Part shown: positions 1 through 64,000 of the stretch, one piece after another
How positions within the stretch are numbered: position 1 is the stretch's first letter
How the letters are laid out: every line of letters starts with the position of its first letter
Assembly (NCBI GenBank): GCA_030431255.1
Contig: JAUIJL010000030.1
Coordinates: 23,572 to 87,571 of the forward strand
Direction of reading: 5' to 3'
Length of the DNA: 64,000 nt
DNA from: Thermoanaerobaculia bacterium
Lineage (GTDB): Bacteria > Acidobacteriota > Thermoanaerobaculia > Multivoradales > J023
Notes under the pieces: generated by a model
The model's database searches: none
Seen by the model: the letters and a program-made list of their open reading frames with translations, nothing else
Told to the model about the DNA's origin: nothing
Program-made: the position numbers and the translations under genes

Positions 1-53
1 CTATGTCTTTGAATGTTGCCGTCATTTGAATCGTTGTGTTGAAGGAGCACTTT

Positions 54-3000
54 ATGTTTGTCCCAACCTCTCGTCAGAGGACCGGCCTCGGCATCTCGGC
101 AGCCTTAACCCTAGGTCTTATTCTTTTACCCTCAACGGGGGCCTCGGCCCAGTATTACAGCTCGGTGGATACCACCAACGCCACCACCCTACGCGCCACC
201 TTGCACGAGGTGATCGACGACCACCAACGTTTTCCGTACACGGCCTCGACCACCGACACGTGGGACATCCTCAACCTGGCCGACGAGGATCCCAACGACA
301 TCAACCGCATTGTCGACATCTATAAAAACGCTTCTTACGCCAAGATTTCGGGTGGTGTGGGCGCCTACAATCGAGAGCACTCGTGGCCGAAATCCTACGG
401 TTTCCCCAACGACGGCGACGACAACTCGGCCTACACGGATTGCCATCACCTTTTCGCTTCGGACGCCAGTTATAACTCCGCACGATCCAATAGGCCTTTC
501 CGACAATGCAACTCCGGCTGCACCGAGCACCCCACCGACTTCACGGACGGCCGGGGTGGCGGCTCCGGGGTGTATGCCGGCAACTCCAATTGGGGCACCG
601 GCAATTTCACCCAAGGTACCTGGGAAACCTGGTCGGGACGCAAGGGCGATGTGGCCCGGGCGATGTTCTATATGGACATCCGCTACGAAGGCGGCGTGCA
701 CGGTGGCACGGGCTTTTCCGAGCCGGATCTTCGCTTGACGGACAACGAATCGTTGATCGATCAAAGCAATACGGGCTCGAACGAAAATATCGCCTACATG
801 GGCATGTTGTCCGTGCTGCTGCAATGGCATCTCGAAGATCCCGTGGACGCCCGGGAGCTCTATCGCAACGAGATCGTCTACAGCTTCCAAGGCAATCGAA
901 ATCCCTTCATCGACAATCCCGATTGGGCCCTGTGCATCTACCAAGGCACGAATTGCTCCGGCGGCGGCAGCGACACCACCCCGCCGGCGGCTCCCACGGG
1001 TCTGGCCGCCACCGCCGGCACGAACCAGGTCTCCTTGGTCTGGAACGCCAACGGTGAGCCCGATCTGGCGGGTTATAACGTCTATCGCTCCACCACCTCC
1101 GGCGGCTCTTACACCAAGCTCAACGGTGCCTACGTCACCCAAACGTCCTACACCGACTCCACCGCCGTGGCCGGCACCACCTACTACTACGTGATCGCCG
1201 CCGTCGACACCTCCGGCAACATCTCCAACGACTCCAACGAGAGCTCCGCGACCCCGACCGGTGGCGGCGGAGGGGGTGGTGGCGGAGGAGGGGGCAATCC
1301 CACGGGAGACTTGATCCTCACCGAGGTGCTTTATGACGTCTCGTCCACCGATGACGGCTGGGAGTGGGTGGAGATCTACAACCGCGGAACCAGCACCGTG
1401 GATCTCTCCGCTTGGTCCCTCGGCAACGGCGGCACCACCTACACCACCTCCACGGTGCAGCTCTCCGGCAGCCTCGCCCCCGGCCAGACCTTTGTGGTCG
1501 GCGGTGCCTCATCCGGAGCCACCAACGCCAATCCCACCTACGATCAGGTCTTCAACTTCAGCCCGGATTTCCAGAATAGCGGCACCACCGCCGACGGTGT
1601 GGCCCTCTTCAACGTCACCGCGAGCGCTATTACCTCGTCCACCATTCCAGTGGACGCGGTGGTCTACGGCCCGGCGAACAGCAGCGGCTTGATCGACGAA
1701 ACCGGCTCCGCCAACGCTCCCGAGGTGGGTGACGCCGGACCGGGGTCGTCGATCGAACGCGTCGATCTCGCCGGCAATTGGCAGATTCAAAGCTCGCCGA
1801 CCCCGGGCTCGATCCCCTTCTCCGGTCCGTCGAATACGGCGCCGACCGTGGCCATCTCCAGCCCGAGCCAAGGGTCGACCTTCACCACCGGCTCGACGGT
1901 CGGTTTTACGGGATCCGCCACGGACACCGAGGACGGCGACCTGAGCGCCGGCCTGGTTTGGAGCTCGAACCTCGACGGCCAGATCGGCTCCGGCGGCTCC
2001 TTCTCCACCTCGAGCCTGTCCATCGGCACCCACACGATCACCGCCTCGGTGACCGATTCCGGCGGCCTCTCCGGCCAGGACACCGTCACCGTGACCATTG
2101 AGGATGTGGTCCCGTCCACCGGCGACCTGATCTTGTCGGAGGTCTTCTACGATCCCTCCGGTACCGACGATGGCCTGGAGTGGGTCGAGATCTACAACCG
2201 TGGCACCGGCTCCGTCGATCTTTCCGGTTGGTCCCTGGGCAACGGTGGCACCACCTACACCACCTCGTTGGTACAGCTCAGCGGCACCCTTGCGGCGGGT
2301 GAAACCTTCGTGGTCGGTGGCCCGACCTCCAGCTCCCTGAACGGTTTCCCGGTCTTCGACCAAGCCGTCGACTTCAACCCCGACTTCCAGAACAGCGGCA
2401 CCACCGGCGACGGTGTGGCCCTCTTCAATGTCACCGCCGCGACGGTGACCTCGTCGACGGTGCCCGTGGACGCGGTGGTTTACGGTCCCAACAACGGTAG
2501 CGGCCTGATCGACGAGAGCGGCTCCGCCGGTGCTCCCGAGGTCGGCGACGCGCCGTCCGGCTCCTCGATCGAACGCATCGACCAAGCCGGCAATTGGCAG
2601 ATCCAAGGCGTGCCGACCCCCAACAGCACGCCGCTCAACGGACCGCCCGCCAACACCGCGCCGAGCGCGTCGATCAGCACGCCGACGTCGGGCTCGGTGT
2701 TCGTTGAAGGTGATCCGGTGAGCTTCGCCGGCTCCGCCTCGGACGCCGAGGACGGCGACCTCTCCGCGAGCTTGGTGTGGACCTCGGACCTGGACGGTCA
2801 GATCGGCGTCGGTGCCTCGTTCTCGTCGTCGGGTCTGTCGGTCGGAAATCACACTCTCTCCGTATCGGTCACCGACTCCGGCGGCCTGAGCGCCGGCGAC
2901 AGCGTTTCGATCGAGGTGCAGCCGGCCGGCGGGCCCACCACGGTCACCTTCACTTCCATCGGCGGTGAGGACGGCTGGGTCCGAGAGTCGAGCGAGAATT

Positions 3001-48026: not shown

Positions 48027-50042
48027 ATGAATATTCCGACCCACACGGCCCCCGCTCAAGGTACCGAATATTGCCTGCGTGGCGAGATTGGTGGCCTTGA
48101 GCAGCTCTACTTGCTCAAGCCGGGTGAGAATCGGCTCGGTGCCCTCGACTCCAACGAGGTGACCCTGCCGATTCCCGGCGTCTCACGCATGCACGCCCGC
48201 CTCAGCCTGTCGGCCACGGGTGACCTCAGCATCGAGGATCTTTCGAGCAAGAACGGCACGTTTGCCGACGGCCAGCGGATCCAAACCGCCACCGTACCGG
48301 TGGGGTCGGAGCTACGATTCGGCCCGGTCAGCCTGCGCTACGAGGAATTCCATCGAGACGACGGTCGGTTGGCGATCAGCTTCGATTTCAATCCTACCGA
48401 GCAGACCATGTCGTTCCCGATCCAGGGATCGCCACGCAATACGGGCACCCAGATCAGCTCCCTCACCCGCCAATGGCTGATTCTGGCCGAAGCGTTCCAA
48501 GAGCGCTTGATGTACGGCGATGCCGGCGATTTCACCGCCGCCCTGAGCTTGTTGGTGGAGGAAATGCACCTCGACACCGCCTGCATGATGGAGCTGCCCG
48601 ACGGCCGCGAGCCGGTTTTGCTCAACACCGTCGGCCGGCTCGACGACGCGGCGGCCAAAGAGCTCAAGCGGGTCCTGAAACCGTTCCGTCAGCAACCGGC
48701 CGGCCGCAACAGCATCTACTACGACACCTTGAACGACAGTCGCGGCGGCTCCCTCACCGTCGCCGCGTTGCGCTCCCCCGGTGCCGATCCCCTTGTGCTC
48801 GCGCTCTGGGGCCGATTCCCCGGGCGCCTCGACAGCGAGCAATTCCTGCGTCTGCTGATCCGCATGCTCGATGCCCAGCGCCCCAACGTAGCTCGCGGCG
48901 GCCAGCGGGACTCCGAGGACAACTCGGGCATCTACCCCGGCTTGATCGTGCCTCCGGACTACGTCTACGCCCAATCCGAGGTCATGCGTCAAATCTACGA
49001 CCTGATGCAAACCTTGGCCCAGGGCGATTTACCCATTCTGATCATCGGCGAGACCGGCGTCGGCAAAGAATATCTGGCCCAAATCCTCCACAGCTCCTCG
49101 CCCCGACGCCGCGGTCCGTTCGTCGCCATCAATTGCGCGGCCATTCCCGCGGAGCTGCTGGAAGCGGAGCTCTTCGGCATCGGCGACGGCGTGGCCACCG
49201 GGGTGACCGCCCGCAAAGGCAGATTTCAGCTGGCGGACGGCGGCACCCTCTTCCTCGATGAGATCGGGGATATGTCGGCGGATCTCCAGGCCAAGCTGCT
49301 GCGAGCCTTGCAGGAAAAGGAGGTCCATCCCTTGGGCAAGGAGCCCGTAGGAGTGGACGTCCGGGTGCTCGGAGCCACCAACCAGGAGCTGCTGAACCGC
49401 ATCAGCGACGGCTCGTTTCGGGCCGACCTCTACTACCGCCTAGCGGGTTATGTGCTGGAAATTCCACCCCTGCGCGAGCGACGGGAGGACGTCCCGCCCC
49501 TGGTCGAGCATTTCATTCGTCAATGTGCCGGCGAGCTCAATCGCTCGATCCGGGGTCTGACGGTGCACGCCTTGCGTATGCTCACGGACTACCCGTGGCC
49601 CGGTAACGTCCGCGAGCTCGCCAACGAGGTGCGCCGGGCGGTCTATCTCTGCCCGGAGCACCGCACCATCGAATCCTCCACCCTTTCCAAGACCCTGCGC
49701 CAGCACTACGCCACCCAAGGGCTCGGCGGCCTCGGGCTCGACAGCTCCGACGGCCATTCCACGCCGGGCACTCAAAGCGGTGACCTGCCGCGCCGCGAGC
49801 GCAGCCGGGACGACAGCAAAATCGTGTCCAGGCCCGTGGGCCTGAGCCTCGACTCCCTCGATTTGGAGGAGCTCGAGCACAAGGCCATCGACGAGGCCCT
49901 GCGCCGCTGCCAGGGCAACCAAGTCCAAGCCGCCAAGCTCCTGGGCATCTCGCGCCAAAAGCTGCGCCGACGGATGGAACGTATGGGTCATCTCAAACCC
50001 CCCGCCGGCAAATCCCCAAAGAGCCCAGCCGAAGATGAATAA
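48027..50042 (+). CDS. FHA-domain sigma54-type enhancer-binding protein (AAA+, Fis HTH)
   Basis: GVSRMHA and DLSSKNGT (FHA); GETGVGKE, INCAAIP, LFLDEIG, FRADLYYRL and WPGNVREL; GAFTGA is replaced by GVATGV. Confidence 0.9.
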   Translation: MNIPTHTAPAQGTEYCLRGEIGGLEQLYLLKPGENRLGALDSNEVTLPIPGVSRMHARLSLSATGDLSIEDLSSKNGTFADGQRIQTATVPVGSELRFGPVSLRYEEFHRDDGRLAISFDFNPTEQTMSFPIQGSPRNTGTQISSLTRQWLILAEAFQERLMYGDAGDFTAALSLLVEEMHLDTACMMELPDGREPVLLNTVGRLDDAAAKELKRVLKPFRQQPAGRNSIYYDTLNDSRGGSLTVAALRSPGADPLVLALWGRFPGRLDSEQFLRLLIRMLDAQRPNVARGGQRDSEDNSGIYPGLIVPPDYVYAQSEVMRQIYDLMQTLAQGDLPILIIGETGVGKEYLAQILHSSSPRRRGPFVAINCAAIPAELLEAELFGIGDGVATGVTARKGRFQLADGGTLFLDEIGDMSADLQAKLLRALQEKEVHPLGKEPVGVDVRVLGATNQELLNRISDGSFRADLYYRLAGYVLEIPPLRERREDVPPLVEHFIRQCAGELNRSIRGLTVHALRMLTDYPWPGNVRELANEVRRAVYLCPEHRTIESSTLSKTLRQHYATQGLGGLGLDSSDGHSTPGTQSGDLPRRERSRDDSKIVSRPVGLSLDSLDLEELEHKAIDEALRRCQGNQVQAAKLLGISRQKLRRRMERMGHLKPPAGKSPKSPAEDE

Positions 50043-50083: not shown

Positions 50084-51478
50084 ATGAGCCCAGCAGATCC
50101 GCAGCCTGCCGACTTGCCGGACGCCGGCCCGGCCCCAAAAGTCCTGGTGGCCGACGACCAGCGAGACGTCCTAGAGTCCCTCCGCTTCTTGCTTCGCTCC
50201 GAAGGGTGCGCCGTCGAGACCGTCACCTCCCCACGGCTGGTGCTCGATCAGCTCCAACATCAGGAATTCGATGTGGTGCTGATGGATTTGAACTACGCCC
50301 GCGACACCACCTCCGGGCGTGAGGGATTGGATCTGATCCGGGACGTTCGAAAGATCGATCCAGCGCTGCCGATCGTGGTCATGACCGCTTGGGCGAGCGT
50401 GGAGGTGGCGGTGGAAGCCATGCGCGAGGGAGCGCGGGATTTCGTCGAAAAACCGTGGGACAACAACCGCCTGCTGTCGATCCTGCGAACCCAAACCGCT
50501 CTCGGACGAGCGATCCGTCGAGGTCAACGGCTGGAGGCGGAGAATCGGATTCTGCGCGACCGTGGAAAATCCGAGCTGATCGCCGGCAGCCCGGCCATGC
50601 AACCGGTTCTCGAGCTCATCGAGCGGGTCGGTCCGTCGGACGCCAACGTGTTGATCACGGGCGAGAACGGCACCGGCAAAGGATTGGTCGCCCAAGTGCT
50701 GCACCGGGTCTCCGATCGGTCGGAAAATCCGTTGATCACGGTCAACATCGGGGGCCTGTCGGAATCGATTTTCGAGAGCGAGCTCTTCGGTCACGTCAAG
50801 GGGGCTTTCACCGACGCCAAGAGCGATCGGGTCGGTCGATTCGAGCTGGCGGACGGCGGCACCCTGCTGATGGACGAAATTGCCAACATCTCCATGGCCC
50901 AACAATCTCGGCTCCTGCGCATTCTCGAAACCGGGGAGCTCGAGCGGGTCGGCTCCTCGCGCACCCGCAAGGTAGACGTCCGCATTCTCTCGGCCACCAA
51001 CGCCGATCTCCAAGAAGCGGTCAACCGCCAAACCTTCCGCCAAGATCTGCTCTTCCGCCTCAACACGGTGGAAATCCGCATTCCACCCCTGCGCGATCGT
51101 CGGGAAGATATCCCCGAGCTGGCCTTGAGCTTTTTGCGACGACACGCTCAGCACTACCGCAAACCCGTCAGCTCGTTCGACGACGGGGCCCTCAAAGCCC
51201 TGCTGGGCCATCCTTGGCCGGGCAACGTGCGCGAGCTCTCCCATGTGGTCGAGCGATCCGTGCTGATGTCCAACGGTGACACGGTGCACGCCCGCGACCT
51301 CGGCTTGCAAAGCACCGCCGCTCCTGCTTCCCTCGACGAGATGACCCTCGAAGACGCCGAGAAGCTGCTGATCCGCAAGGCCCTCGAGCGATACGCCGGC
51401 AACGTCAGCGACGCGGCCCGCGTGCTCGGCCTTTCCCGCAGCGCCCTCTATCGGCGGTTGGAAAAGTACGGTCTTTAG
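50084..51478 (+). CDS. NtrC-family sigma54-dependent response regulator
   Basis: Receiver domain (VADD, MDLN, KPW), GENGTGKG, GAFTDA, WPGNVREL and a C-terminal HTH. Confidence 0.93.
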   Translation: MSPADPQPADLPDAGPAPKVLVADDQRDVLESLRFLLRSEGCAVETVTSPRLVLDQLQHQEFDVVLMDLNYARDTTSGREGLDLIRDVRKIDPALPIVVMTAWASVEVAVEAMREGARDFVEKPWDNNRLLSILRTQTALGRAIRRGQRLEAENRILRDRGKSELIAGSPAMQPVLELIERVGPSDANVLITGENGTGKGLVAQVLHRVSDRSENPLITVNIGGLSESIFESELFGHVKGAFTDAKSDRVGRFELADGGTLLMDEIANISMAQQSRLLRILETGELERVGSSRTRKVDVRILSATNADLQEAVNRQTFRQDLLFRLNTVEIRIPPLRDRREDIPELALSFLRRHAQHYRKPVSSFDDGALKALLGHPWPGNVRELSHVVERSVLMSNGDTVHARDLGLQSTAAPASLDEMTLEDAEKLLIRKALERYAGNVSDAARVLGLSRSALYRRLEKYGL

Positions 51479-51734: not shown

Positions 51735-53198
51735 TTATGCTGTTGAGCCTCGGTCCGAAGGCTCGGCGCCGGGCACGCGGATGGCCTGAACCTCAATGCC
51801 CGGCGAGCCCAAACGAATCCGATCCCCGGATTTGACGATCGTTTGCCCTTCTACGCGCCGATCCTCGATCCAGGTGCCGTAGGTGCTGCGGTCCTCGAGC
51901 ACCATCTGCCCGTCCCTGAGCTCCAGAAATAGATGACGTCTCGAGATACCCGCGGTCGAGCCGCTGAGCACCAAACCCCGGCCCCCCGGAGCAGGCTGAG
52001 TACCGAGGGCGAAAGGGCCGTCACCGATGGGATAGGCCATGCCTCGGTGCAAGATGTGGGTCGGTGGCGGATCCGCAAGACCCTCGCCGGTGCCGCCGCC
52101 CGCTTTGAATGAGCCGGTCTGGGACTCACGCACATGCACGATCGGACCCGACTTCTCCGCTTCCGTGGGTAGTCGAACCACATAGGGCAGGGTCTCGTCG
52201 TTGGCCAGCTCGCCCACGGATGTTTCCACCGCCGAGCGCCCCAATAAAGCACCTCGCACCGGTGCCGCGCTATCCAGCTCCAACACCTCGATGTTGAGCT
52301 CGCGCTTCATCCGATCCGCCAACCCGGGCAACCTGGCCACATGGCTCGACAACAACAGCGTCGGCGGCTCGCCACTTTTGAGAATCCGCCCCACCAGGGC
52401 GACCAAGGCGTCGTATTGCACCTGGGCCGCGGCGATCAAGTGATCTCGTTGGAGCTCCACGGACATTTCGCCACTGGGACCCTCGAGACGCGGGATGGTG
52501 ACCCCGGAGTGCTTCAGCTGGTCGAGCCAACGCACCATCTGATGGTAGAGGATTTGCTCGAGCTCCACATCGTAGAGAGGGTCGAAGCGGGTTGTTTTGA
52601 TGAAGACGTCGGCGATATACCGAGCCCAAAGATCCTGTAGCGGGACCCAACCCACGGCGTCTTCGACCTCGATCCGACCTCGGGCCAGCTCACGCCGACG
52701 CTCGATCTCCGTCAGCACCGCGCGGTGCTGGTGCAGGTCCAGGTGCAACAATCGGCCGCGGGGCAGCTCGAAGGCTGCGGGCAACGCAGCTGAAAGAGCC
52801 GTGTCGACCAAGCCTCGGACGGGAATCTTCAAAGACCGAGCAATGCCCAACAGCAGCCCCAGCTGTTTGCCGGAAAACGCGCCGCTGGCCACCACCAGCA
52901 CCGACTCCACCCCTTCTTGTGCTTCTTTCCAAACCGCCTCGAGGTGTGCGTGCACCAGCTCAGCGACGGTCCATGTCGAGGGGAACGGCTCACCCAGCGG
53001 CGCTAGGCTCAACTCTTGCCAGAACCGACGCTGGACTTCTTTGGGCCTCAGCCGAGAGCGTCCCTCGGCGCTGGCTCCGACCACCAGTCGCTGGCCGTCC
53101 CAAAGGGCGACCCCCGGACTCTCGATCCTCAGGTCAGGACCGTCGTCCGACAGGGCGGTCAAGCCGACATCGTGAATTTCGAGGGCCAATCTGGACAT
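51735..53198 (-). CDS. Degenerate Hsp70/actin-like fold protein with a C-terminal FHA domain
   Basis: N-terminal 'ESPGVAL...LVVG..A.....P' and 'LGLLLGIA....IPVRGLVD.A..A' resemble Hsp70 subdomain motifs; FHA 'GISRRHL...LEDRSTYGTW...GDRIRLG'. Confidence 0.6.
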   Translation of the reverse strand: MSRLALEIHDVGLTALSDDGPDLRIESPGVALWDGQRLVVGASAEGRSRLRPKEVQRRFWQELSLAPLGEPFPSTWTVAELVHAHLEAVWKEAQEGVESVLVVASGAFSGKQLGLLLGIARSLKIPVRGLVDTALSAALPAAFELPRGRLLHLDLHQHRAVLTEIERRRELARGRIEVEDAVGWVPLQDLWARYIADVFIKTTRFDPLYDVELEQILYHQMVRWLDQLKHSGVTIPRLEGPSGEMSVELQRDHLIAAAQVQYDALVALVGRILKSGEPPTLLLSSHVARLPGLADRMKRELNIEVLELDSAAPVRGALLGRSAVETSVGELANDETLPYVVRLPTEAEKSGPIVHVRESQTGSFKAGGGTGEGLADPPPTHILHRGMAYPIGDGPFALGTQPAPGGRGLVLSGSTAGISRRHLFLELRDGQMVLEDRSTYGTWIEDRRVEGQTIVKSGDRIRLGSPGIEVQAIRVPGAEPSDRGSTA

Positions 53199-56182: not shown

Positions 56183-56211
56183 TTGACCGCGGGTTGACGG
56201 ATTTCTAGAAT
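56183..56211 (+). promoter_or_regulatory. Sigma70-type promoter for the giant NTPase gene
   Basis: TTGACC (56183-88), 17 bp, TAGAAT (56206-11), in an AT-rich intergenic region. Confidence 0.6.
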
Positions 56212-56264: not shown

Positions 56265-56352
56265 TCCGCATGTTTCTCTAGCCGAATTTATATTCGGTTT
56301 GAGCCGCTATTCCGACCTATAGCGCGTTTTTCTTTGAATTTCGGAGGGAACC

Positions 56353-59300
56353 ATGGCCAGCAAAGACCCATCGTCCAATCCCAAAACGCCGACCGATCAG
56401 GGCGCGGTTCGCGACCGCTTTTCCCATCGCACCTACGTCGCGGACTTCGGGTCCTACGAAGGCAATCGGCGAACCGAAGAGCCCGACAACGAGCTACTGG
56501 TGGGTCGTGAGGCTCAACGGGCTCGCCTGCTCAACCTGCTGTTCAACACCGCTCAACGGGGCGCCTACCTCATCACGGGTCATCGAGGGTCCGGCAAGAC
56601 GACCTTTGTCAACTATTGCTTGAACGAATATCGATTCGAAATATTTTATCGATATCTCAAGAGCAACCTCGGTCGCGCCTTCTTGTGGGATCGTTTTGGT
56701 TTGGTGATTTTCGGCGTGCTGCTCTTCCTCTTCGGCATGTTGGTGCACCAATCCCTGGCCTACCTCTTCCTCCTACCGTCCCGCGGCATCCTGCATTGGC
56801 TAGCCATCACTATCCTCACCTTGATCGCTTGCTATCCCTTTGTCGCTGCCTACGAGCGGTTGAAGCTGATTAGTGAACGATTGCTGGAGCTGGCGACGCT
56901 TAGAGCGCCCAAATTGGAAGAAGACCGAAGACATGCCAGGAAGCTGAGAAAAAGGCAGCTTGAGGCAGAATCACAAACCTACTTAGAGGATCAGGCTTTC
57001 ACAGCCTTCATGGAGGTTTCGAGAAACCTGGCCGATACTCTACCTAGGTTGTCAAAAGGCCCCACGCACTACAGATCCATCTCAATCGCCAAAGAAATGC
57101 TCGATCACTTGGCAAGTTCAAGAGCAATCGACAAGGCGGATATCTTGGTGCGAACACTGACCGAAGCAGAGATGACCGTACGGGGCTGGCTGAAGGCAGA
57201 GGTCCCTGGCCAACACCTCAGAGAGTTGCTCGTCAAAGGATTCCTAAAGGACCTGAGCCAAGCGAACAAGGAAGCGAAAACCGAAAAACAGATGCTCGAT
57301 CAACTGGAAAAGCAGGTTAACTCATTCTTGGAATACCCTAATTCGAAGAACGCAGGCGAGCTCAGCTCAACGCTGGCTAGGTTGGACGAGCCAAACCAAA
57401 TGAGCACGTTAATAAAGGCCAAAAGTCTGGCGAAGAAGAAGGCGGCTAGAGAAGTTCTTTTCCAGGACCTAAAAAGCCTTTATATCCAAGCAAAGATCTA
57501 CTTCAAAAACTTCTTCCAGGCTTCAGCGGCTGTTGGCCGCCCCAGCCCGGTGCCCTTTCTAACCTTATTCGTCATTGCTGGACTCTCTTGGACTCTTGTC
57601 CGGGCCGGCCATCCCGCAGAATTTGCAGCTGAGCTTGTATATTGCGCCGGCTGGCTGTATTTCCTGGTCGCCCTGGCCCATCCAACCTTCCCCAGGGCCC
57701 AGGAGCTACACATCCTTGGGCTACTCACCATTATCGGGTTGGATCTCCTAATCACCAACAACTACCTTGAGGCTCATTTTCCCCACACTACAGAGGGCTT
57801 CTTCGTTAGTGGGATGTTTAGTGGGTCTCTCGGTCTCTTGTTGAGCGCTCATCATAAGCACGAAGCCGTTCAGAATTGGTTTCGAAGAAGAAGGAGGCCT
57901 GACTTCCACGGGCAGGTACCTGGAAACTTCATCCGGCAGAGCTACCTAAACAAGATTTGGCCTCCTTTCAGCAACAAGGGCTCCGAGCCCCCTATGAGCC
58001 GCGCATCTCTAATGGCTCTATACTTGTTGTTTCTGTCTCTGCTTTTTTGGCTGGGAGCTTTAGTAGTCGCAATTCTCAACAGGTTTCTTACAAACAAGCT
58101 TGAGCCTTGGAAGAGCCCAGCGCTGTCGTTGACCCTTCTCATGCTGGCCCTTTTGCCCGTGCTCCTTGATCTGGCCTGTCTTTGTCTTCCCACGGCCAGG
58201 TATCTATCCGAGGAAAAACGCCGAAAAACAGAGCTGACGCAGACAGCGGAAGCAGCCATTGCTGCCGGTCGCTGGTACGCCTGGTCGGGTATCTTGCTCT
58301 TGTCCGGAACCGGAATTTTCGTCTTCTTAGCCAACCTTCTCTTTGCTCGTCAGCTTGGGTTGTTGCCACTGGCTGCCATCAAGGCCCTGATCTTGATTGT
58401 CTCTTGCCACACCATCTATCTCGTCCTCCGCTGCTTTCGTGGCCTCGGGTATCTTTTTGGCATCTCTGATGAGAAGGAAGAGGCCGATGGATCAAAGTCC
58501 ACCTGGAGAACTCAGTCCCGGTTCCGGACTCGCGCCGACGCCAAGAACTCTCGTCAGGAGCTATTGCAAGCCGCGATCAGTGGCCAGCATGCCCAACCTT
58601 TGCTTCTAATTCTCGCCAAATCCGTGTTCCTCGTTCAGGTTGGACTGATCCTCGTCTACCCGGCCCTGGCATCCCTTCAGAATCCTGGGCCTGCAAAGAT
58701 CTTTGTCGTGGCATCCAAACCTTACTCGGTCGCGGGTCCTGGCCAGCGCTCTTGCGTCGGCACATCCCTCTGCAGGACCCTACAAGATCGGTTCGGCATA
58801 GACCACCGAACGACTCAAGGATTCGAAGAGACCGCAAGTCTCTATCGCAGGGCTGAAAACTCGACCATCGACCTTTTCGCAGATCTTCGAAAATCCAAGA
58901 ATCAAAATATTGGCAAACCTCAGGGTTTCTTGGGGTCCATAGAGTGGGTGTTGGCGTTACTTTTTCTGACTTTAGCGATCGCCTACTTGGAATACGAATG
59001 GATCCTTCGGGGAGGGCAGCACGTGCGTCCTGACCGCACCCTGAGGCACCAAACCAGCGAGGTTCGACGGGCAGCCGGTGTTGCCAAAGACGAGGCTGGA
59101 GACGTGTCTCGGGCCTACCAACGCAGGCTCTTGGAGCAGACCCTCTTTTGGCGGGTACATCAGTCGTGGCTGCCCATCCTCACGGTACCGGTCAATCTCG
59201 GCTTTGATTCCCTAGACCACCGGCGGGTCGTCGAAGCCATGCTGACCGGCCTACGAGACGCCTACCACAAACTATTCTTTCAATGGTCCAGCCCAACCCG

Positions 59301-62300
59301 ACTCGTGGCGACGGGCGGCGGCCTTCTCATGCTGAGTTGGATCTCTCTCTCCCTGGGGAACCACTGGTTTCATGTCGACGAGTCCCATCAGGATCGGCTC
59401 GCAGCGGGCGACTTCTGCCGATGGATCATGCCAAATGACCCGTCCTCTGCTGAAGTCTCGGCCAAAATACCCACCTCAACAGATTCCCCCCTCTACCTGG
59501 ATTTCCACACCGTCAAAGGCACCGGCAACACCCCTACAGAGCCCAGCGAGAGACAGCCTTCTGACCCGCCAGAGATTGACTTCGCCCCTGGCATGCAAAT
59601 CGCCTGCTTAGGTGGAGAGATTACAGCTCGCATGGTTCAATGGCCGCTATTTCTACAGGTCCAGCCTTCCACAGACGGCAAGATTTCAAAGGTCGACTTC
59701 GAAAAACACTATTCAGGGACTGTTTTCGGACTATTTTTCCCAGAGGTCCTCGCGGGCGGTGAGATGACTCTCCGCCTCTATCATTTCCTGATCTTTTTAG
59801 CCTTGGTGGGCGTCAGCAGCTGGATCGGAAAACGACGACCGCCTCTACCTTACCGTCGGACTCTCAATGAAATCGAGCTGCTGCTCTCCCAGATTTCCAG
59901 CCACCAGCGCGAAGAGTTGCGCTACCACCCCGCGATAATCCCGCGCTTGGTTGGGGTCTTCACGGGTGAGGACAAGGTCAAACATTGGGAGTCCGAGCCA
60001 TTCGATCCGCGGACCATCGAAATTTCCGTGCTGCGAATTCTCCGCGACATTCAAGATCCCACAGTACATTTTCCATATCTGGCGAGGCATCGCATCAATC
60101 TTCCGACGCCCGAGATCATTTTTAAATTCGATGAGCTGGATAAGCTCGGAATTGGTGTGTTGCCGCACCATGAAACCACCGGCCCAGAGGTCGGCGAAAC
60201 CGAGCAATTCGACCTGGAAAGGCAGAGAACTCGAGCTCTTCACAGTCTTTTTGCCGACATGAAGAATCTGGTGTCGTCCGGTGCTGCTCGTTTCATTTTT
60301 GTCGGTGGACGCAATCTGCACGATGAATGGCTCGCCGATCAGACAGCTCGACGCCCGCTGTTGACCAATATATTCGAGGTGGAAATATACCTACCTTCTT
60401 TGCTCCTGGCGGAAGGACCCGTAGACAGCAATGCTAAGAATCTCACCGACGGCATTACCACTTTCGTCGAGGCTCAATATCAACATGCAATCAAGCGCAA
60501 TCGACGGGCGCTCTTACACCGATATCGTCCTTGGTTGACACCGTGGCTCGAGACTCCAGCGGAGCCCATCTTTGTTCAGGTAGCACGCAAAAGACTGAGC
60601 GACGCCCGCTTGCCCACCCTCATCGTGCGGGGAGTTCCACTCCTAGAAGGCCGCCCGCCGATAGGCTCAGATGAGAAGGACCAGCCGCGGCAGTGGGGCA
60701 ACCGAGATCTGCCACGCTGGAAGAATGCGTTGATCAATGACTTCATGGAATTCCTGGCCTACCGAAGCCGCGGTAACGTCAAACGACTGAAGGCTACCCT
60801 CGAACGCTTCGTGGAGCCTTCGTTGAAAGTCCTCGGCGATGACCTTCCCGTGGACTGCCAGCACGTCTTGGTTTTCCGCGACACCGATCGATTCCGGATC
60901 CAGCTGATCGCTGAGATCTATCGTCGAATTCTTTCCGCCTTTGACCCTCGAATCCGTTTCTACGACGACAAGCTCGTGGTCGGTCTGCTGTACATCGCCG
61001 ACTTCCTACTCAAATTCCACCGTCGAGCCTTTGCCTGGAACAGCCTCCAAAAGGTGGACGAGCTGGTCCACATCCACCGTGCGCCCGAGCTACCCAACGC
61101 CATCTCGGATCTTCTCCATGCCTGGCAACAAAAGTACTTGCATCGCATCCGCAACGGCATGTACGACTATCGCTTCAACAGCGATTTCGCTATGGAGCTG
61201 CGGTACCTCTCCCGTCGCTCCGACGAGGAGTTGGCGGCCCTCAACTTTACTCTCGACGAGTCTCAGGCACTTAAGGCCCTCTACCGCAGCCGGTTCTCCC
61301 AGCTGAAGGATCCTTCATCTTATGAGTTTGTAGCTGCGCTCGGAGAGCTACACGAATTCGACGGTGAATACGACGTCGCCCGCTACTACTACAATCGCGC
61401 GCTTTCTTATCTAGACGAGCACTTTCACATGCAGGTCGCCCGCAAGAAGGACAAACCTGCCTTCTTTTCGGTCATGCTCCAAGATCAAAAAGGATTGGAA
61501 GCTGTCCGACGCCGTATTGCCTGGGGCATTGCCCGGTTGCGGCTCAAGATGCAAATCGGCATGTCCTACGAACAATCGAACGATCTTGAGCAGGCCCAGG
61601 GGCACTATCGAAATGCCCGAACTCTGGCCTCGGCAATCATGAGGGCGCTGCTGAACGCCAAGGTCGTTTGGGACCCCGCAGGGCTCAAGGAATTAGAATT
61701 TCCGCGAGCACCCGACTACGGAGCTCCGGACTATGTCTCCACCCTCAAACATCTCAATCTGCTCTTCCAACCCGCCTTCGCGGAAGCGTGGGTCTCGGAA
61801 AAACACACCGGTGGTGTGGACACCAGCACCCGCCTGATCGAGCGTTCTATCTGGGAGTTGCGCTGGAGGCTGCCCTTCGTCCGTGAGGAATTTGATCCGA
61901 AGAATGTGCTGCGGCTTTTCCACAACTGGGTACCCGCCCATGACGTGCTGCATCTCAACTTCGCGCTGATCATGGCAGAGCAGCACAATAAAGTCGGGGA
62001 CCTGCTTTTCTTCAAGGGAGGCGTTTCCTTCGACCATCTCTCCAACCTACCGCCGACCCATCGCACAGGATCCAGCCACCGAGCACCCATCCGCCACTCC
62101 GGCTATCTGATCCGATCTCGTTACCACTACGCCCTCACCTTGCACGAGCTACGGTTCTTCAATCGAGCCCGCCAGCTGCGCTGGGCCGAAAACCACGGCG
62201 GCTCAACCCCTCCGGAGAAAAATCCGGTGTCTCCCGACGAATGGGGGGACTTCGTCTTTCGAGCTACCGGTGGCTCAATAGCTGACTTTGCCGAAACCTT

Positions 62301-64000
62301 CTTGGCCGCCACCCCATCCATGGAGCTTATCTGCTGTCCACCGAGACAGGCCTATGCAGATCAGAGAATCTTGAGCCAGGCATCTCTGAGCAAGCGAGTC
62401 GCAGCCAAAAAAAATCACCTCGGTGTATTGGAATCGACCATTCGTTATTGGTTGAGCGGAATCGATCGGATGCCACCGGGGCTCATGGCGGCAGTGTCGA
62501 GCCTCTCGACTGCCATTCAGAATCGAGGAAATCGCCGTAGTCCCCTTCGACGCCATCTTTATGACCGGAGCAGTCGATCCAGTCTCCATATTCCGCCCAA
62601 GCATCCTACTCCTTCGACGCTCAGCGCCGAGGATTGGCGGAATTTGGTCCTTCGAGGAGTCTTTAACCTTGACGCAAGAGCTCCTAAGTCTCCAGAAGTA
62701 GCTGGAGAGCACAGGCCTTCAGCACGTCAGACCTGGGGCCTACCTTTTGAGCGCGCACTTAGGTCTTGGCTCGGTGTTGCGACTGGCAAGGACAATCTAT
62801 GGGACGAGCTTTGCAGTCAGGAATCCGCACCACTGGACGAGCTCGTTGAAAAGCTCGTGTCGAATCAAGCTGCCGCGGAGCTCCCAGCACATTCTACTCT
62901 GTCCGAGCTCCAAGATCTGGCCGACGGAAGGGTCCAGAATCTCATTCAACTCGGTTCGATCAGTGACCCTTTGGAGATGCTCAGCACCTATTTAGTGCTC
63001 ACCTGCGCCGCTGCCAGAATCCTCGAAAAGGGCGGATTCTACGAAGATGCAGCGCGTAAGAAGCTCCGAATCTTGGAGACCGTCGTCCAGTATTTGAGCT
63101 GGGCTCGCATAGTTTGCAGCCTCAAGACCCGGATCGAGCAAAAATCCGACCCGGATCGGCCGAGATCCGATCAGACTTCTGCTCACGAGCTGGAGAATTG
63201 GAAGAGCATTCTCAAGGGCCAGTGCCCAGAGACCAGTGAGCAGGTCATCAACGAGCTCTTCGACCTCGGATGGTTACTGCTACAAGACGCGCAGACTCTG
63301 TACCAACGTAGCCGCAGCGAATGGAATACCAAGGATAACAACGAGGTTGGCACGCGCCTTCCCACTCAGATGTTCATCTTAGGCTGTTCCCTAGGGCTCG
63401 CTTGGATCGGTCTGAAGGAAGATCCTGCGATCGAAGATGCCCAAGGCGAGCAAACTCTTCTCGGTGCCCTAGAGCAGAGGATCTACAACTGGGTTCAGAA
63501 CGAATCGACACCTTGCAAGGGGGCCGACGTTGATGAGCACCGGAGCTGGCTGAGAACCCAGATCATCGAAATTCTCGAGCGCAATGCCTATCCATTGATA
63601 GGTCGCCTAAGCGGCTTGAAGGCCCTGGTCGACGACGCGGTCCTGAATCCTCCTACCGAAAGAAACGGCCAGCCGGAAGAGCGCGTCAGAGAACAGCGCC
63701 TTGGAGAGCTATGGGAATCTTGCCAACACCTGTCCGAGCTGCTCCAACTCGAAGACCTCTACGACGGCAAATGGCATTTTACGCCCTTCCAAATCGGTTC
63801 GACCCTTGCCCTATTCACTCTGCAACCGGATGGAATCCTCAAAGAAATCGACGATTTGATAAAGCGCCAGAAAGACTTCGACTTCAACAAAGGCCGACGT
63901 CACGACCGCATGTTGCCCCGAATTCGCGACCTGCGGGAGATGGCCCGTCGACACTTGATCGAGGGTCATGAGATGTACACCATGCGCCGGGCTTATTACC
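56353..64000 (+). CDS. Giant multi-pass membrane P-loop NTPase (KAP-like) with a TPR-like helical C-terminus; 3'-partial (>2549 aa)
   Basis: Hand-translated from ATG 56353 (after GGAGGG) with no stop codon before the window edge. Walker A GHRGSGKTT (56578-56604), Walker B IIFKFDELDK (60115-60144), sensor-like RFIFVGG, about 14 hydrophobic helices, and TPR-like 'ALGELHEFDGEYDVARYYYNRAL' and 'QIGMSYEQSNDLEQAQGHY'. Confidence 0.88.
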   Translation, partial: MASKDPSSNPKTPTDQGAVRDRFSHRTYVADFGSYEGNRRTEEPDNELLVGREAQRARLLNLLFNTAQRGAYLITGHRGSGKTTFVNYCLNEYRFEIFYRYLKSNLGRAFLWDRFGLVIFGVLLFLFGMLVHQSLAYLFLLPSRGILHWLAITILTLIACYPFVAAYERLKLISERLLELATLRAPKLEEDRRHARKLRKRQLEAESQTYLEDQAFTAFMEVSRNLADTLPRLSKGPTHYRSISIAKEMLDHLASSRAIDKADILVRTLTEAEMTVRGWLKAEVPGQHLRELLVKGFLKDLSQANKEAKTEKQMLDQLEKQVNSFLEYPNSKNAGELSSTLARLDEPNQMSTLIKAKSLAKKKAAREVLFQDLKSLYIQAKIYFKNFFQASAAVGRPSPVPFLTLFVIAGLSWTLVRAGHPAEFAAELVYCAGWLYFLVALAHPTFPRAQELHILGLLTIIGLDLLITNNYLEAHFPHTTEGFFVSGMFSGSLGLLLSAHHKHEAVQNWFRRRRRPDFHGQVPGNFIRQSYLNKIWPPFSNKGSEPPMSRASLMALYLLFLSLLFWLGALVVAILNRFLTNKLEPWKSPALSLTLLMLALLPVLLDLACLCLPTARYLSEEKRRKTELTQTAEAAIAAGRWYAWSGILLLSGTGIFVFLANLLFARQLGLLPLAAIKALILIVSCHTIYLVLRCFRGLGYLFGISDEKEEADGSKSTWRTQSRFRTRADAKNSRQELLQAAISGQHAQPLLLILAKSVFLVQVGLILVYPALASLQNPGPAKIFVVASKPYSVAGPGQRSCVGTSLCRTLQDRFGIDHRTTQGFEETASLYRRAENSTIDLFADLRKSKNQNIGKPQGFLGSIEWVLALLFLTLAIAYLEYEWILRGGQHVRPDRTLRHQTSEVRRAAGVAKDEAGDVSRAYQRRLLEQTLFWRVHQSWLPILTVPVNLGFDSLDHRRVVEAMLTGLRDAYHKLFFQWSSPTRLVATGGGLLMLSWISLSLGNHWFHVDESHQDRLAAGDFCRWIMPNDPSSAEVSAKIPTSTDSPLYLDFHTVKGTGNTPTEPSERQPSDPPEIDFAPGMQIACLGGEITARMVQWPLFLQVQPSTDGKISKVDFEKHYSGTVFGLFFPEVLAGGEMTLRLYHFLIFLALVGVSSWIGKRRPPLPYRRTLNEIELLLSQISSHQREELRYHPAIIPRLVGVFTGEDKVKHWESEPFDPRTIEISVLRILRDIQDPTVHFPYLARHRINLPTPEIIFKFDELDKLGIGVLPHHETTGPEVGETEQFDLERQRTRALHSLFADMKNLVSSGAARFIFVGGRNLHDEWLADQTARRPLLTNIFEVEIYLPSLLLAEGPVDSNAKNLTDGITTFVEAQYQHAIKRNRRALLHRYRPWLTPWLETPAEPIFVQVARKRLSDARLPTLIVRGVPLLEGRPPIGSDEKDQPRQWGNRDLPRWKNALINDFMEFLAYRSRGNVKRLKATLERFVEPSLKVLGDDLPVDCQHVLVFRDTDRFRIQLIAEIYRRILSAFDPRIRFYDDKLVVGLLYIADFLLKFHRRAFAWNSLQKVDELVHIHRAPELPNAISDLLHAWQQKYLHRIRNGMYDYRFNSDFAMELRYLSRRSDEELAALNFTLDESQALKALYRSRFSQLKDPSSYEFVAALGELHEFDGEYDVARYYYNRALSYLDEHFHMQVARKKDKPAFFSVMLQDQKGLEAVRRRIAWGIARLRLKMQIGMSYEQSNDLEQAQGHYRNARTLASAIMRALLNAKVVWDPAGLKELEFPRAPDYGAPDYVSTLKHLNLLFQPAFAEAWVSEKHTGGVDTSTRLIERSIWELRWRLPFVREEFDPKNVLRLFHNWVPAHDVLHLNFALIMAEQHNKVGDLLFFKGGVSFDHLSNLPPTHRTGSSHRAPIRHSGYLIRSRYHYALTLHELRFFNRARQLRWAENHGGSTPPEKNPVSPDEWGDFVFRATGGSIADFAETFLAATPSMELICCPPRQAYADQRILSQASLSKRVAAKKNHLGVLESTIRYWLSGIDRMPPGLMAAVSSLSTAIQNRGNRRSPLRRHLYDRSSRSSLHIPPKHPTPSTLSAEDWRNLVLRGVFNLDARAPKSPEVAGEHRPSARQTWGLPFERALRSWLGVATGKDNLWDELCSQESAPLDELVEKLVSNQAAAELPAHSTLSELQDLADGRVQNLIQLGSISDPLEMLSTYLVLTCAAARILEKGGFYEDAARKKLRILETVVQYLSWARIVCSLKTRIEQKSDPDRPRSDQTSAHELENWKSILKGQCPETSEQVINELFDLGWLLLQDAQTLYQRSRSEWNTKDNNEVGTRLPTQMFILGCSLGLAWIGLKEDPAIEDAQGEQTLLGALEQRIYNWVQNESTPCKGADVDEHRSWLRTQIIEILERNAYPLIGRLSGLKALVDDAVLNPPTERNGQPEERVREQRLGELWESCQHLSELLQLEDLYDGKWHFTPFQIGSTLALFTLQPDGILKEIDDLIKRQKDFDFNKGRRHDRMLPRIRDLREMARRHLIEGHEMYTMRRAYY

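Follow-up and report, generated by a model that had tools for sequence, protein, structure and literature searches.

A family of giant proteins with a predicted AAA+/STAND-type ATPase core split into three pieces by membrane inserts, represented in a Thermoanaerobaculia bacterium

The 64,000-nucleotide stretch of DNA analysed here (the window) corresponds to positions 23572-87571 of contig JAUIJL010000030.1 (C19) in an assembly of a Thermoanaerobaculia bacterium (10.19 Mb in 54 contigs). Its 3′ end is occupied by a single, very long gene, the subject of this work, which is predicted to encode an ATPase built into the membrane. Frame +1 is open from an ATG at position 56353 to the end of the window, i.e. 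for 2549 residues with an open 3′ end; reading on along the contig, the stop codon ends at window-equivalent position 64158, 158 nucleotides beyond the window, and completes a protein of 2601 residues (hereafter the giant protein). A frame of more than 2,549 residues had been described in an earlier note made from the letters of the window, and the contig extension now supplies its stop. The small open reading frames (ORFs) listed in the same region were there taken for shadows of the long frame, and the seven ORFs of at least 100 residues which lie inside the gene, each 103-158 residues long, are indeed all in other frames. Sigma-70-like sites are no more frequent in the region than expected by chance (3 found, 3.4 expected), and the best of them is thus a candidate only. 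The features of the gene and its immediate upstream region are as follows.

56183..56211, + strand: candidate promoter, the best sigma-70-like site of the region (TTGACC-17-TAGAAT, 10/12), in the AT-rich spacer upstream of the giant gene
56343..56347, + strand: Shine-Dalgarno-like GGAGG, 5 nt before the ATG, within the AT-rich spacer upstream of the gene, read from the sequence
56353..64000, + strand: giant coding sequence, continuing 158 nt past the window (contig C19:79924-87729)
56491..56661, + strand: core piece 1, with helix α0, strand β1 (residues 70-75), Walker A (nt 56578-56601) and helix α1 (residues 82-103), from Pfam AAA_16 and model mapping
56680..59100, + strand: insert 1, a predicted polytopic membrane module with 11 hydrophobic segments (residues ~110-916), from hydropathy and long helices in the model of a relative
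56920..57507, + strand: charged helical insertion (residues 190-385), alignment occupancy below 15% among 39 rows
59101..59280, + strand: core piece 2, with cytosolic helices, strand β2 (residues 942-948, within WLPILTVPVNLGFD) and helix α2 (residues 956-976), mapped from the model
59293..59835, + strand: insert 2 (residues 981-1161), a predicted transmembrane (TM) helix, a 136-residue loop and a second TM helix, from hydropathy and helices 554-578 and 682-701 of the relative's model
59851..60390, + strand: core piece 3, with two helices, β3 bearing Walker B (nt 60115-60144), α3, β4, α4 and β5, from the model and conserved columns
60289-60315, + strand: RFIFVGGRN on β4, within core piece 3, with an arginine at the sensor-1 position
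60448..61134, + strand: helical lid and helix/strand region, from invariant R, S, G and D-D-K, H, R, F columns and the relative's model
60751-60789, + strand: conserved FLAYRSRGNVKRL helix in the lid
60964-61032, + strand: invariant D-D-K...F-H-R-R-A-F motif, in the helix/strand region after the lid
61240..62319, + strand: TPR-like helical repeats (residues ~1630-1989), from a model of the giant protein's own residues 1560-2601
62320..64000, + strand: further α-solenoid to the C-terminus, from the all-helical model
64021-64047, + strand: tail motif YLHDDFNDR, just past the window, nearly invariant (family form Y-L-Y-D-D-F-N-D-R)

The giant ORF is one real gene and not an assembly join. Its unusual length, and the fact that it runs off the window, are all that could speak for gene decay or for a fusion of separate genes through misassembly or an accident of frame; an artefact of assembly joining separate genes was the first ground on which the earlier note would have withdrawn its proposal, and it is excluded by the following observations. 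The full 7648-nucleotide stretch is present in four runs from two studies; for each study, one run yields a 36-kb contig that contains it unbroken, free of joints and identical throughout (0 differences), although the assembly may itself derive from either study. No RNA data set was listed among those containing the stretch, an outcome without bearing on expression. Many assemblies made independently carry full-length homologues, one of them being the complete genome of Sorangium cellulosum So ce56: a word-indexed search returned 38 such proteins (1669-2332 residues; E-values from 0 to 1e-164), and an exhaustive HMMER search with residues 930-1900 returned 983 representative clusters (50% identity) at E ≤ 1e-3, 877 at E ≤ 1e-10 and 340 at E ≤ 1e-30, most of the best 150 of the 983 being 1800-2500 residues long. 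Invariant motifs are collinear in these proteins from the N- to the C-terminus. The likelihood of an artefact is, in our judgement, negligible.

Both Walker motifs are unique within the giant protein. The sole G-x4-GK[ST] sequence is GHRGSGKT at residues 76-83 and the sole Walker-B-like motif is IIFKFDELDK at residues 1255-1264; their spacing, 1183 residues, matches the estimate of the earlier note (about 1,180 residues, between positions ~76 and ~1260). The probable core strand which that note placed at about 59167, WLPILTVPVNLGFD, begins at nucleotide 59167 exactly, and the two elements it had picked out after Walker B were located at residues 1313-1321 (RFIFVGGRN) and 1467-1479 (FLAYRSRGNVKRL). 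Wide separation of the two motifs is a property of the whole family, being 526-1183 residues in 39/39 proteins, with the giant protein having the widest gap. Walker A takes the form G-[HRQNFL]-R-G-x-G-K-[ST] in all 39, and the invariant columns of a 40-row alignment comprise the Walker A residues, N-L-G, D-E-L-D-K, G-G-R, H-D-E-W, R-S-x-G, and D-D-K...H-x-R-x-F.

How these motifs might come together was addressed with an AlphaFold model, computed with the family alignment, of residues 1-1150 of a relative from the same order (genome G029, protein P0043, 1981 residues); the model has a mean predicted local distance difference test score (pLDDT) of 75 and a predicted template modelling score (pTM) of 0.78. 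It begins with a strand (54-59), the P-loop and a helix (66-87), from which eleven long helices (94-471) lead to a strand bearing V-N-L-G-F (515-521) and a helix (529-549); a long helix (554-578), a folded loop and a second long helix (682-701) come next, followed by two helices, the Walker B strand (794-800), a helix, a strand bearing F-I-F-V and G-G-R (852-856), a helix, and a final strand (882-885). In an insertion-tolerant superposition with VIA-align against 48,161 chains, 169 residues drawn from model positions 29..886 overlay residues 29..205 of the Cdc6/Orc1 chain 2qby_A (Z 13.0; root-mean-square deviation (rmsd) 3.2). A match of so few residues, drawn from so wide a range, to one compact domain requires that the three pieces come together in the model. 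The best 50 superposition matches are all AAA+/STAND ATPases (ORC/Cdc6, RdrA, TnsC, MuB, NLRs, MalT, Avs3, BrxC, CED-4, Apaf-1 and a STAND-TPR protein), the α/β core of the predicted model being recognised at Z values from 13.0 (Cdc6/Orc1) down to about 10. A second run, against the 965 chains ranked highest by Foldseek, agreed with the first (RdrA 8hr8_C, Z 13.2, 212 aligned), with the AAA+ superposition again ending at model residue 886. A search of PDB sequences was also run, and the likeness is one of fold, without a sequence-level relation. Mapped back from the relative, the core pieces of the giant protein are residues 47-103, 917-976 and 1167-1346, the second having a block conservation of 0.57-0.64. 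We thus predict, as the earlier note had proposed in placing both motifs in one NTPase domain, that the distant Walker motifs belong to a single AAA+/STAND-type domain in three pieces.

Both gaps in this core contain hydrophobic sequence. Using the Kyte-Doolittle scale (19-residue window, threshold 1.5-1.6), 11 segments were found within residues 117-884, one at 984-1002 and one at 1140-1158, with none after Walker B. A layout of two inserts with about 12 and two hydrophobic segments had been put forward in the earlier note; the layout holds, as do the charged helical stretch in the first insert and the two helices around a loop in the second, whereas the count for the first insert is 11 at the threshold used. 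The charged stretch (residues 190-385; 196 residues) is lysine/glutamate-rich and helical, lies between the second and third hydrophobic segments, and is unique to the giant protein, being absent in 38/38 aligned homologues, including the closest (P0005). The loop of insert 2 comprises 136 residues in the giant protein (1006-1141) and 103 in the G029 relative, where it is modelled with pLDDT values mostly of 80-94. It must sit on the far side of the membrane, because both of its flanks are cytosolic core elements; the columns of its cysteines C1022 and C1085 are filled in 85-88% of alignment rows, and their conservation suits an extracytoplasmic disulfide.

Within the protein, conservation is lowest in insert 1 (0.13-0.4 per block), and the number of hydrophobic segments varies across the family from 4 to 11 before the V-N-L-G strand and from 0 to 3 after it, at the threshold used. 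A helix count of 4-11 in the least conserved, membrane-embedded part is a poor fit to a fixed channel or transporter, and it likewise goes against the suggestion in the earlier note that oligomerisation of the NTPase gates a large TM module. No Pfam family and no usable named ESM Atlas match was obtained for the membrane module; PDB sequences gave matches of hydrophobic composition only (E > 0.04), and no membrane-protein chain is among the best 50 superposition matches of the relative's core model in either run. A transporter family is thus absent from the Pfam, PDB-sequence (E > 0.04) and fold matches listed, and the core belongs to the ORC/STAND type used for switching and assembly, which we take not to be a known transport motor. 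We therefore consider it improbable that the protein is a new type of ATP-driven transporter or gated channel, with the polytopic module as permeation path and the ATPase as motor or gate, even though some 13 TM segments are wired directly into the ATPase core and Tmn, a membrane NTPase to which we return below, couples ATP turnover to Mg2+ export according to PMC13001434.

Beyond the core, the helix/strand region after the lid is possibly a winged helix. For the C-terminal part, residues 1560-2601 of the giant protein itself (1,042 residues) were modelled, and are almost entirely helical (47 helices; pLDDT 75.1; pTM 0.83), in agreement with the tail of more than 1,000 helical, TPR-like residues described in the earlier note. 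Residues ~1630-1989 superpose on the TPR domains of kinesin light chain (Z 12.1, 191 aligned) and LGN (Z 11.5, rmsd 2.8), and on Rap/NprR/PlcR regulators and MalT domain III at Z values of about 10-11, the range of 10-12 being a grey zone for helical repeats. Foldseek returned six matches to the solenoid model at E ≤ 1e-3, all of them large α-solenoids (CTR9, SKI3/TTC37, PRPF6), and Pfam TPR_2 matches weakly at residues 1662-1686. The predicted repeat region follows the NTPase and lid, as it does in STAND proteins.

The solenoid is conserved on a par with the ATPase core (0.5-0.8 per block). Conservation of a helical region across phyla is expected if it binds a conserved endogenous partner, and this points to a physiological alternative, in which the membrane module and outer loop would sense the state of the envelope or periplasm, the ATPase would act as a switch, and the solenoid would recruit a conserved partner within the cell, by analogy with MalT-type STAND regulators or with Kidins220, a eukaryotic scaffold protein of the KAP family. 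The matches to MalT domain III and the Rap/NprR/PlcR regulators, together with the folded outer loop and its two conserved cysteines, are in line with such a role in envelope signalling or scaffolding, whilst Pfam identifies no output domain (DNA-binding, kinase or cyclase) and no conserved partner gene lies nearby. We regard this alternative as tentative. One family member, P0012 (JGI metagenome; 2227 residues), carries a SAM-methyltransferase domain after the conserved tail (PF13847, PF13489, PF13649, PF08241, PF08242) and is labelled benzoquinol methylase by its source; this rare fusion might hint at an output activity.

The relationship of the giant protein to described families was considered at the levels of profile, motif and fold. 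On the whole protein, Pfam matches AAA_16 alone (residues 49-94; E 2.8e-7; 31.6 bits, below the cut-off of 32.6). The N-terminal fragment alone reaches 36.6 bits, over positions 2-49 of the 167 in the profile, with weaker matches to iSTAND, ATPase_2, ORC-CDC6-like and nSTAND models (iSTAND, nSTAND1 and nSTAND3 at E 0.004-0.03). Neither the β2 piece nor the Walker B half gave a Pfam match, STAND models included, and NCBIfam returned nothing meaningful for the giant protein.

Membership of the KAP family, to which the earlier note had turned, is not borne out. In a six-frame search of the genome with PF07693, none of 16 matches at E ≤ 10 falls on C19:79924-87729, and KAP is absent both from the whole-protein Pfam matches at E ≤ 1 and from the best 25 of 30 matches of the N-terminal fragment. 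KAP proteins from the phylum served for comparison (present in 17/151 genomes, G088 being counted without use of its locus): the tryptophan of the KAP Walker A, GxWGxGK[ST], is found in 15/15 KAP proteins with the motif and is replaced by arginine in the giant protein. There are nonetheless resemblances, in that the two Walker motifs enclose TM segments, as they enclose TM pairs in several of the 17 KAP proteins, that the Walker B sequences are similar (DD[LIV]DR in KAP, DELDK in the giant family), and that a helix ~150-190 residues after Walker B reads GNPRxIKRFLN in KAP and GNPKRLKELL in the giant family. With hhalign, a 40-row family profile aligned to KAP through the P-loop segment alone (E 9e-4). 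Profiles of 143-170 rows aligned the N-terminal α0-α1 segment to KAP with 90% probability (E 1.5e-6; controls, sigma-54 AAA+ E 0.005 and reversed KAP 0.3) and the Walker B/sensor half at E 0.017 (nulls 0.33 for sigma-54 AAA+ and 0.13 for reversed KAP), and the G-N-P-K helix to the KAP N-P-R-x-I-K-R helix at E 0.12, the last two values being close to the nulls of 0.13-0.33. The affinity to KAP is thus one of the N-terminal profile; in addition, one ESM Atlas cluster near the family has KAP_NTPase in 14% of its members. Unlike KAP proteins, members of the giant family have two insertion sites as well as an outer domain and are 2000-2600 residues long, and the giant protein has 13 TM segments rather than a hairpin. 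The best KAP-model match in the genome (E 0.006, sub-threshold) is a 2062-residue ORF on contig C35 (L090:1606-7794, - strand); considered as a possible paralogue, it was rejected by eye on account of a different architecture, being a hybrid of Ser/Thr kinase, AAA_16-like ATPase, helical, GAF, histidine-kinase and receiver regions without membrane inserts.

A closer parallel in architecture is offered by Tmn, which the earlier note had cited as a KAP protein but which is placed in the YobI family, not KAP, in PMC13001434. As described there, Tmn is a single-protein defence system, found using PADLOC, which forms a decamer with an α-solenoid sensor and a variable C-terminus and couples ATP hydrolysis to the export of Mg2+. 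The giant protein resembles Tmn as described in PMC13001434 in having a P-loop domain with embedded TM helices, in ending with a long α-solenoid, in being a single polypeptide and in lacking a conserved operon; the same source gives two TM helices and a median length of ~1270 residues in the main clades of Tmn, as opposed to 13 TM segments and 2601 residues here. Whereas Tmn proteins have exactly two TM helices in the P-loop domain, the giant protein has 11 + 2 and the family 4-11 + 0-3. A genome search with the YobI model PF20693 gave six matches at E ≤ 10, none of them on the giant gene.

STAND ATPases with TPR sensors resemble the giant protein in having AAA_16 as the best Pfam match, in fold (MalT Z 10.5, Avs3 Z 10.3, the STAND-TPR protein 6mfv Z 10.0) and in their order of NTPase, lid and TPR; the arginine after β4 and a G-x-P-type lid motif are presumably equivalent to STAND motifs. 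They differ in that the core of the giant protein is split by membrane inserts and carries no N-terminal effector domain, and our literature search found no description of a membrane-split core for STANDs. The highest structural scores belong to ORC/Cdc6 AAA+ proteins (2qby_A, Z 13.0) and to RdrA of RADAR (8hr8_C, Z 13.2); insert 2, between α2 and β3, occupies what we take to be the position of the ORC/Cdc6 clade's own helical insert. Unlike these proteins, to which there is no relation at the level of sequence, the giant protein is predicted to be membrane-embedded and its winged helix is putative. Overall, our reading of these comparisons is that they suggest a separate family within the AAA+/STAND/KAP assemblage, leaning to KAP at its N-terminus and belonging to neither KAP nor YobI.

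The family spans at least Acidobacteriota, Myxococcota and Pseudomonadota. Carriers among 42 loci include Holophagales, Thermoanaerobaculia, Sorangium cellulosum So ce56, Plesiocystis pacifica SIR-1, Enhygromyxa and several Rhodobacterales, together with Cohaesibacter, Methylococcales, Thiotrichaceae, Candidatus Thiosymbion and Magnetococcales. Full-length members are present in cultivated organisms, namely P. pacifica SIR-1, S. cellulosum So ce56, Tropicimonas sp. and Octadecabacter dasysiphoniae, which brings genetic work within reach although the source of the window is uncultured. The distribution is very sporadic: the gene is present in 3/41 relatives, the window genome included, in 1/7 other genomes of the same genus, where the copy is fragmentary, and in 2/301 sampled genomes of the phylum. 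The earlier note would have given up its proposal had the homologues been vertically conserved, a case which does not apply here; by the same token, such occurrence is unusual for a core physiological function and argues against the envelope-signalling alternative. In a FastTree phylogeny (342 conserved columns, without bootstrap; L051 on a very long branch), the giant protein is joined by an unnamed protein and one from Competibacteraceae (support 96), apart from the clade of its same-order relative, and a metagenome-assembled genome of Enterobacterales is nested in the Nannocystaceae clade.

The gene appears to stand alone. Within the window it is preceded by genes for an AMMECR1 protein, a DUF885 protein, an FHA protein and two sigma-54 activators, and it is followed by genes for a UvrD-type helicase and a GH2 glycosidase. 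Flanks were compared at 33 of the 42 loci (L028, L030, L040, L048, L049, L050, L052, L054 and L055 were left out as short contigs or partial matches), and no neighbour is conserved among them, the commonest flank cluster occurring in 5/33; the UvrD-like and GH2 neighbours have no counterpart in any flank of the 33 loci. The helicase gene (1083 residues, + strand; L002:7894-11145) begins 88 nucleotides after the stop of the giant gene, with no terminator-like site between the two. Its UvrD domain lies in the C-terminal ~600 residues (Pfam UvrD-helicase, E 7.7e-70), whilst the N-terminal ~470 residues give no Pfam match at E ≤ 0.001 and begin with a histidine-rich motif reminiscent of a PHP phosphoesterase. 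Upstream, the adjacent sigma-54 activator genes (48027-50042 and 50084-51478, both + strand) encode one N-terminal FHA domain and one receiver domain, and a divergently oriented gene for an FHA-domain protein lies beside them (51735-53198, - strand).

Taken together, these observations are best accommodated by a self-contained, membrane-integrated switch ATPase of AAA+/STAND type, for which a sporadic, stand-alone gene with some horizontal spread makes an accessory role in conflict or stress the likeliest; we put the probability of this reading at roughly 0.55. The core, as modelled and mapped, runs β1, P-loop, α1, β2, α2, β3 with Walker B, β4 with the sensor arginine, and β5, with the polytopic membrane module expanded between α1 and β2, a TM hairpin with a folded extracytoplasmic domain of ~100-136 residues between α2 and β3, and the lid and ~1,000 residues of TPR-like solenoid after the core. 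As the chain passes four times between core and membrane and so ties the two together, nucleotide binding or hydrolysis would be expected to shift the TM helices against one another. Nucleotide-dependent self-association is probable, as in other STAND/ORC-type ATPases, and binding of a partner by the cytosolic solenoid may alter the membrane module or outer loop, or coupling may run in the opposite direction. The protein would then be both sensor and membrane effector in one chain, working like Tmn or membrane KAP proteins, with Tmn, by analogy, as the closest working precedent for the mode of action.

Several points weigh against the accessory switch reading. The three-dimensional evidence for the core is a prediction for a relative which is 45-47% identical to the giant protein in conserved blocks and 32% over the whole alignment, whereas the giant protein itself has a span of ~1270 residues from Walker A to the sensor; Foldseek gave no match to the G029 core model at E ≤ 1e-3, and ATPase activity, oligomerisation and membrane insertion of the giant protein are predicted properties. 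The variable, least conserved membrane module is disfavoured as a fixed effector. Phylum labels cluster on the tree (5 changes, compared with 12.3 when shuffled), so transfer between phyla has been limited, and the resulting phylum-coherent clades favour a physiological role.

Nor does the genomic context favour defence. The two nearest ORFs per side (124 in all; raw counts, not set against a background) are mostly housekeeping genes, among whose families are phosphorylase, trimethylamine methyltransferase, amylase, topoisomerase I, ABC, MFS, AcrB and glutamine synthetase, with one transposase family among the 25 most frequent Pfam families listed. For PADLOC, 25 of 43 families with matches are listed, each with matches in 1-2 of these 124 ORFs, and there are several generic ones among them (kinase, GlgB, DprA-like). 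Similarity of the downstream helicase to PADLOC GajB models (E 1.3e-78) is probably generic to UvrD domains, as is that of the sigma-54 activators to RtcR/PspF models to their own domains. The giant protein itself matches no family of PADLOC-DB 2.0 at E ≤ 0.01, and mad8 alone (E 0.052) at E ≤ 1. The candidate defence system proposed in the earlier note therefore finds no backing in a PADLOC match or, at the 33 loci compared, in a conserved neighbour, and the association of homologues with defence islands on which it would depend amounts to a few generic model matches among the families listed. The same note had cast the TPR-like region as the sensor of a trigger in defence, but this region is among the best conserved of the protein, unlike the C-terminus of Tmn, which is variable according to PMC13001434. 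A defence role of the giant protein is thus possible but unsupported. Conserved solenoid and ordinary neighbourhoods alike call for caution, and with housekeeping neighbours and no defence-model match, physiological signalling stays a serious rival to the accessory switch.

A bolder version of the accessory switch is a new class of one-protein immune or conflict receptor spanning both compartments, in which a STAND-type ATPase would cross the inner membrane at two places, a periplasmic, disulfide-bonded domain and the cytosolic solenoid would feed one nucleotide switch, and the membrane module would alter permeability on assembly. Such a receptor could, for instance, sense what happens at the envelope when a phage adsorbs or injects, or when competitors attack; we think it unlikely, if somewhat less so than the transporter or channel considered above.

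To our knowledge, membrane helices inside the catalytic domain of a P-loop switch ATPase are known from KAP and YobI/Tmn alone, with a hairpin or two helices each, and a mechanism for Tmn has only recently been given. The present family pushes this principle further, with up to ~1,180 residues, 13 membrane segments and an outer domain placed at two loops of a core that is still predicted to form one domain. Membrane-inserted P-loop switch NTPases as such are known; an insertion of this extent, made at two sites of the core, has no precedent. Our literature search found no description of the family, and no family model covers it beyond the partial AAA_16 match; labels such as 'ATP-binding protein' or 'hypothetical protein' on genes of ~2,000 residues hide what is a coherent family. 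Its function, if found, would reveal to what extent a nucleotide switch may be built into a membrane, and would add to the membrane-inserted signalling NTPases a third lineage of distinct structure.

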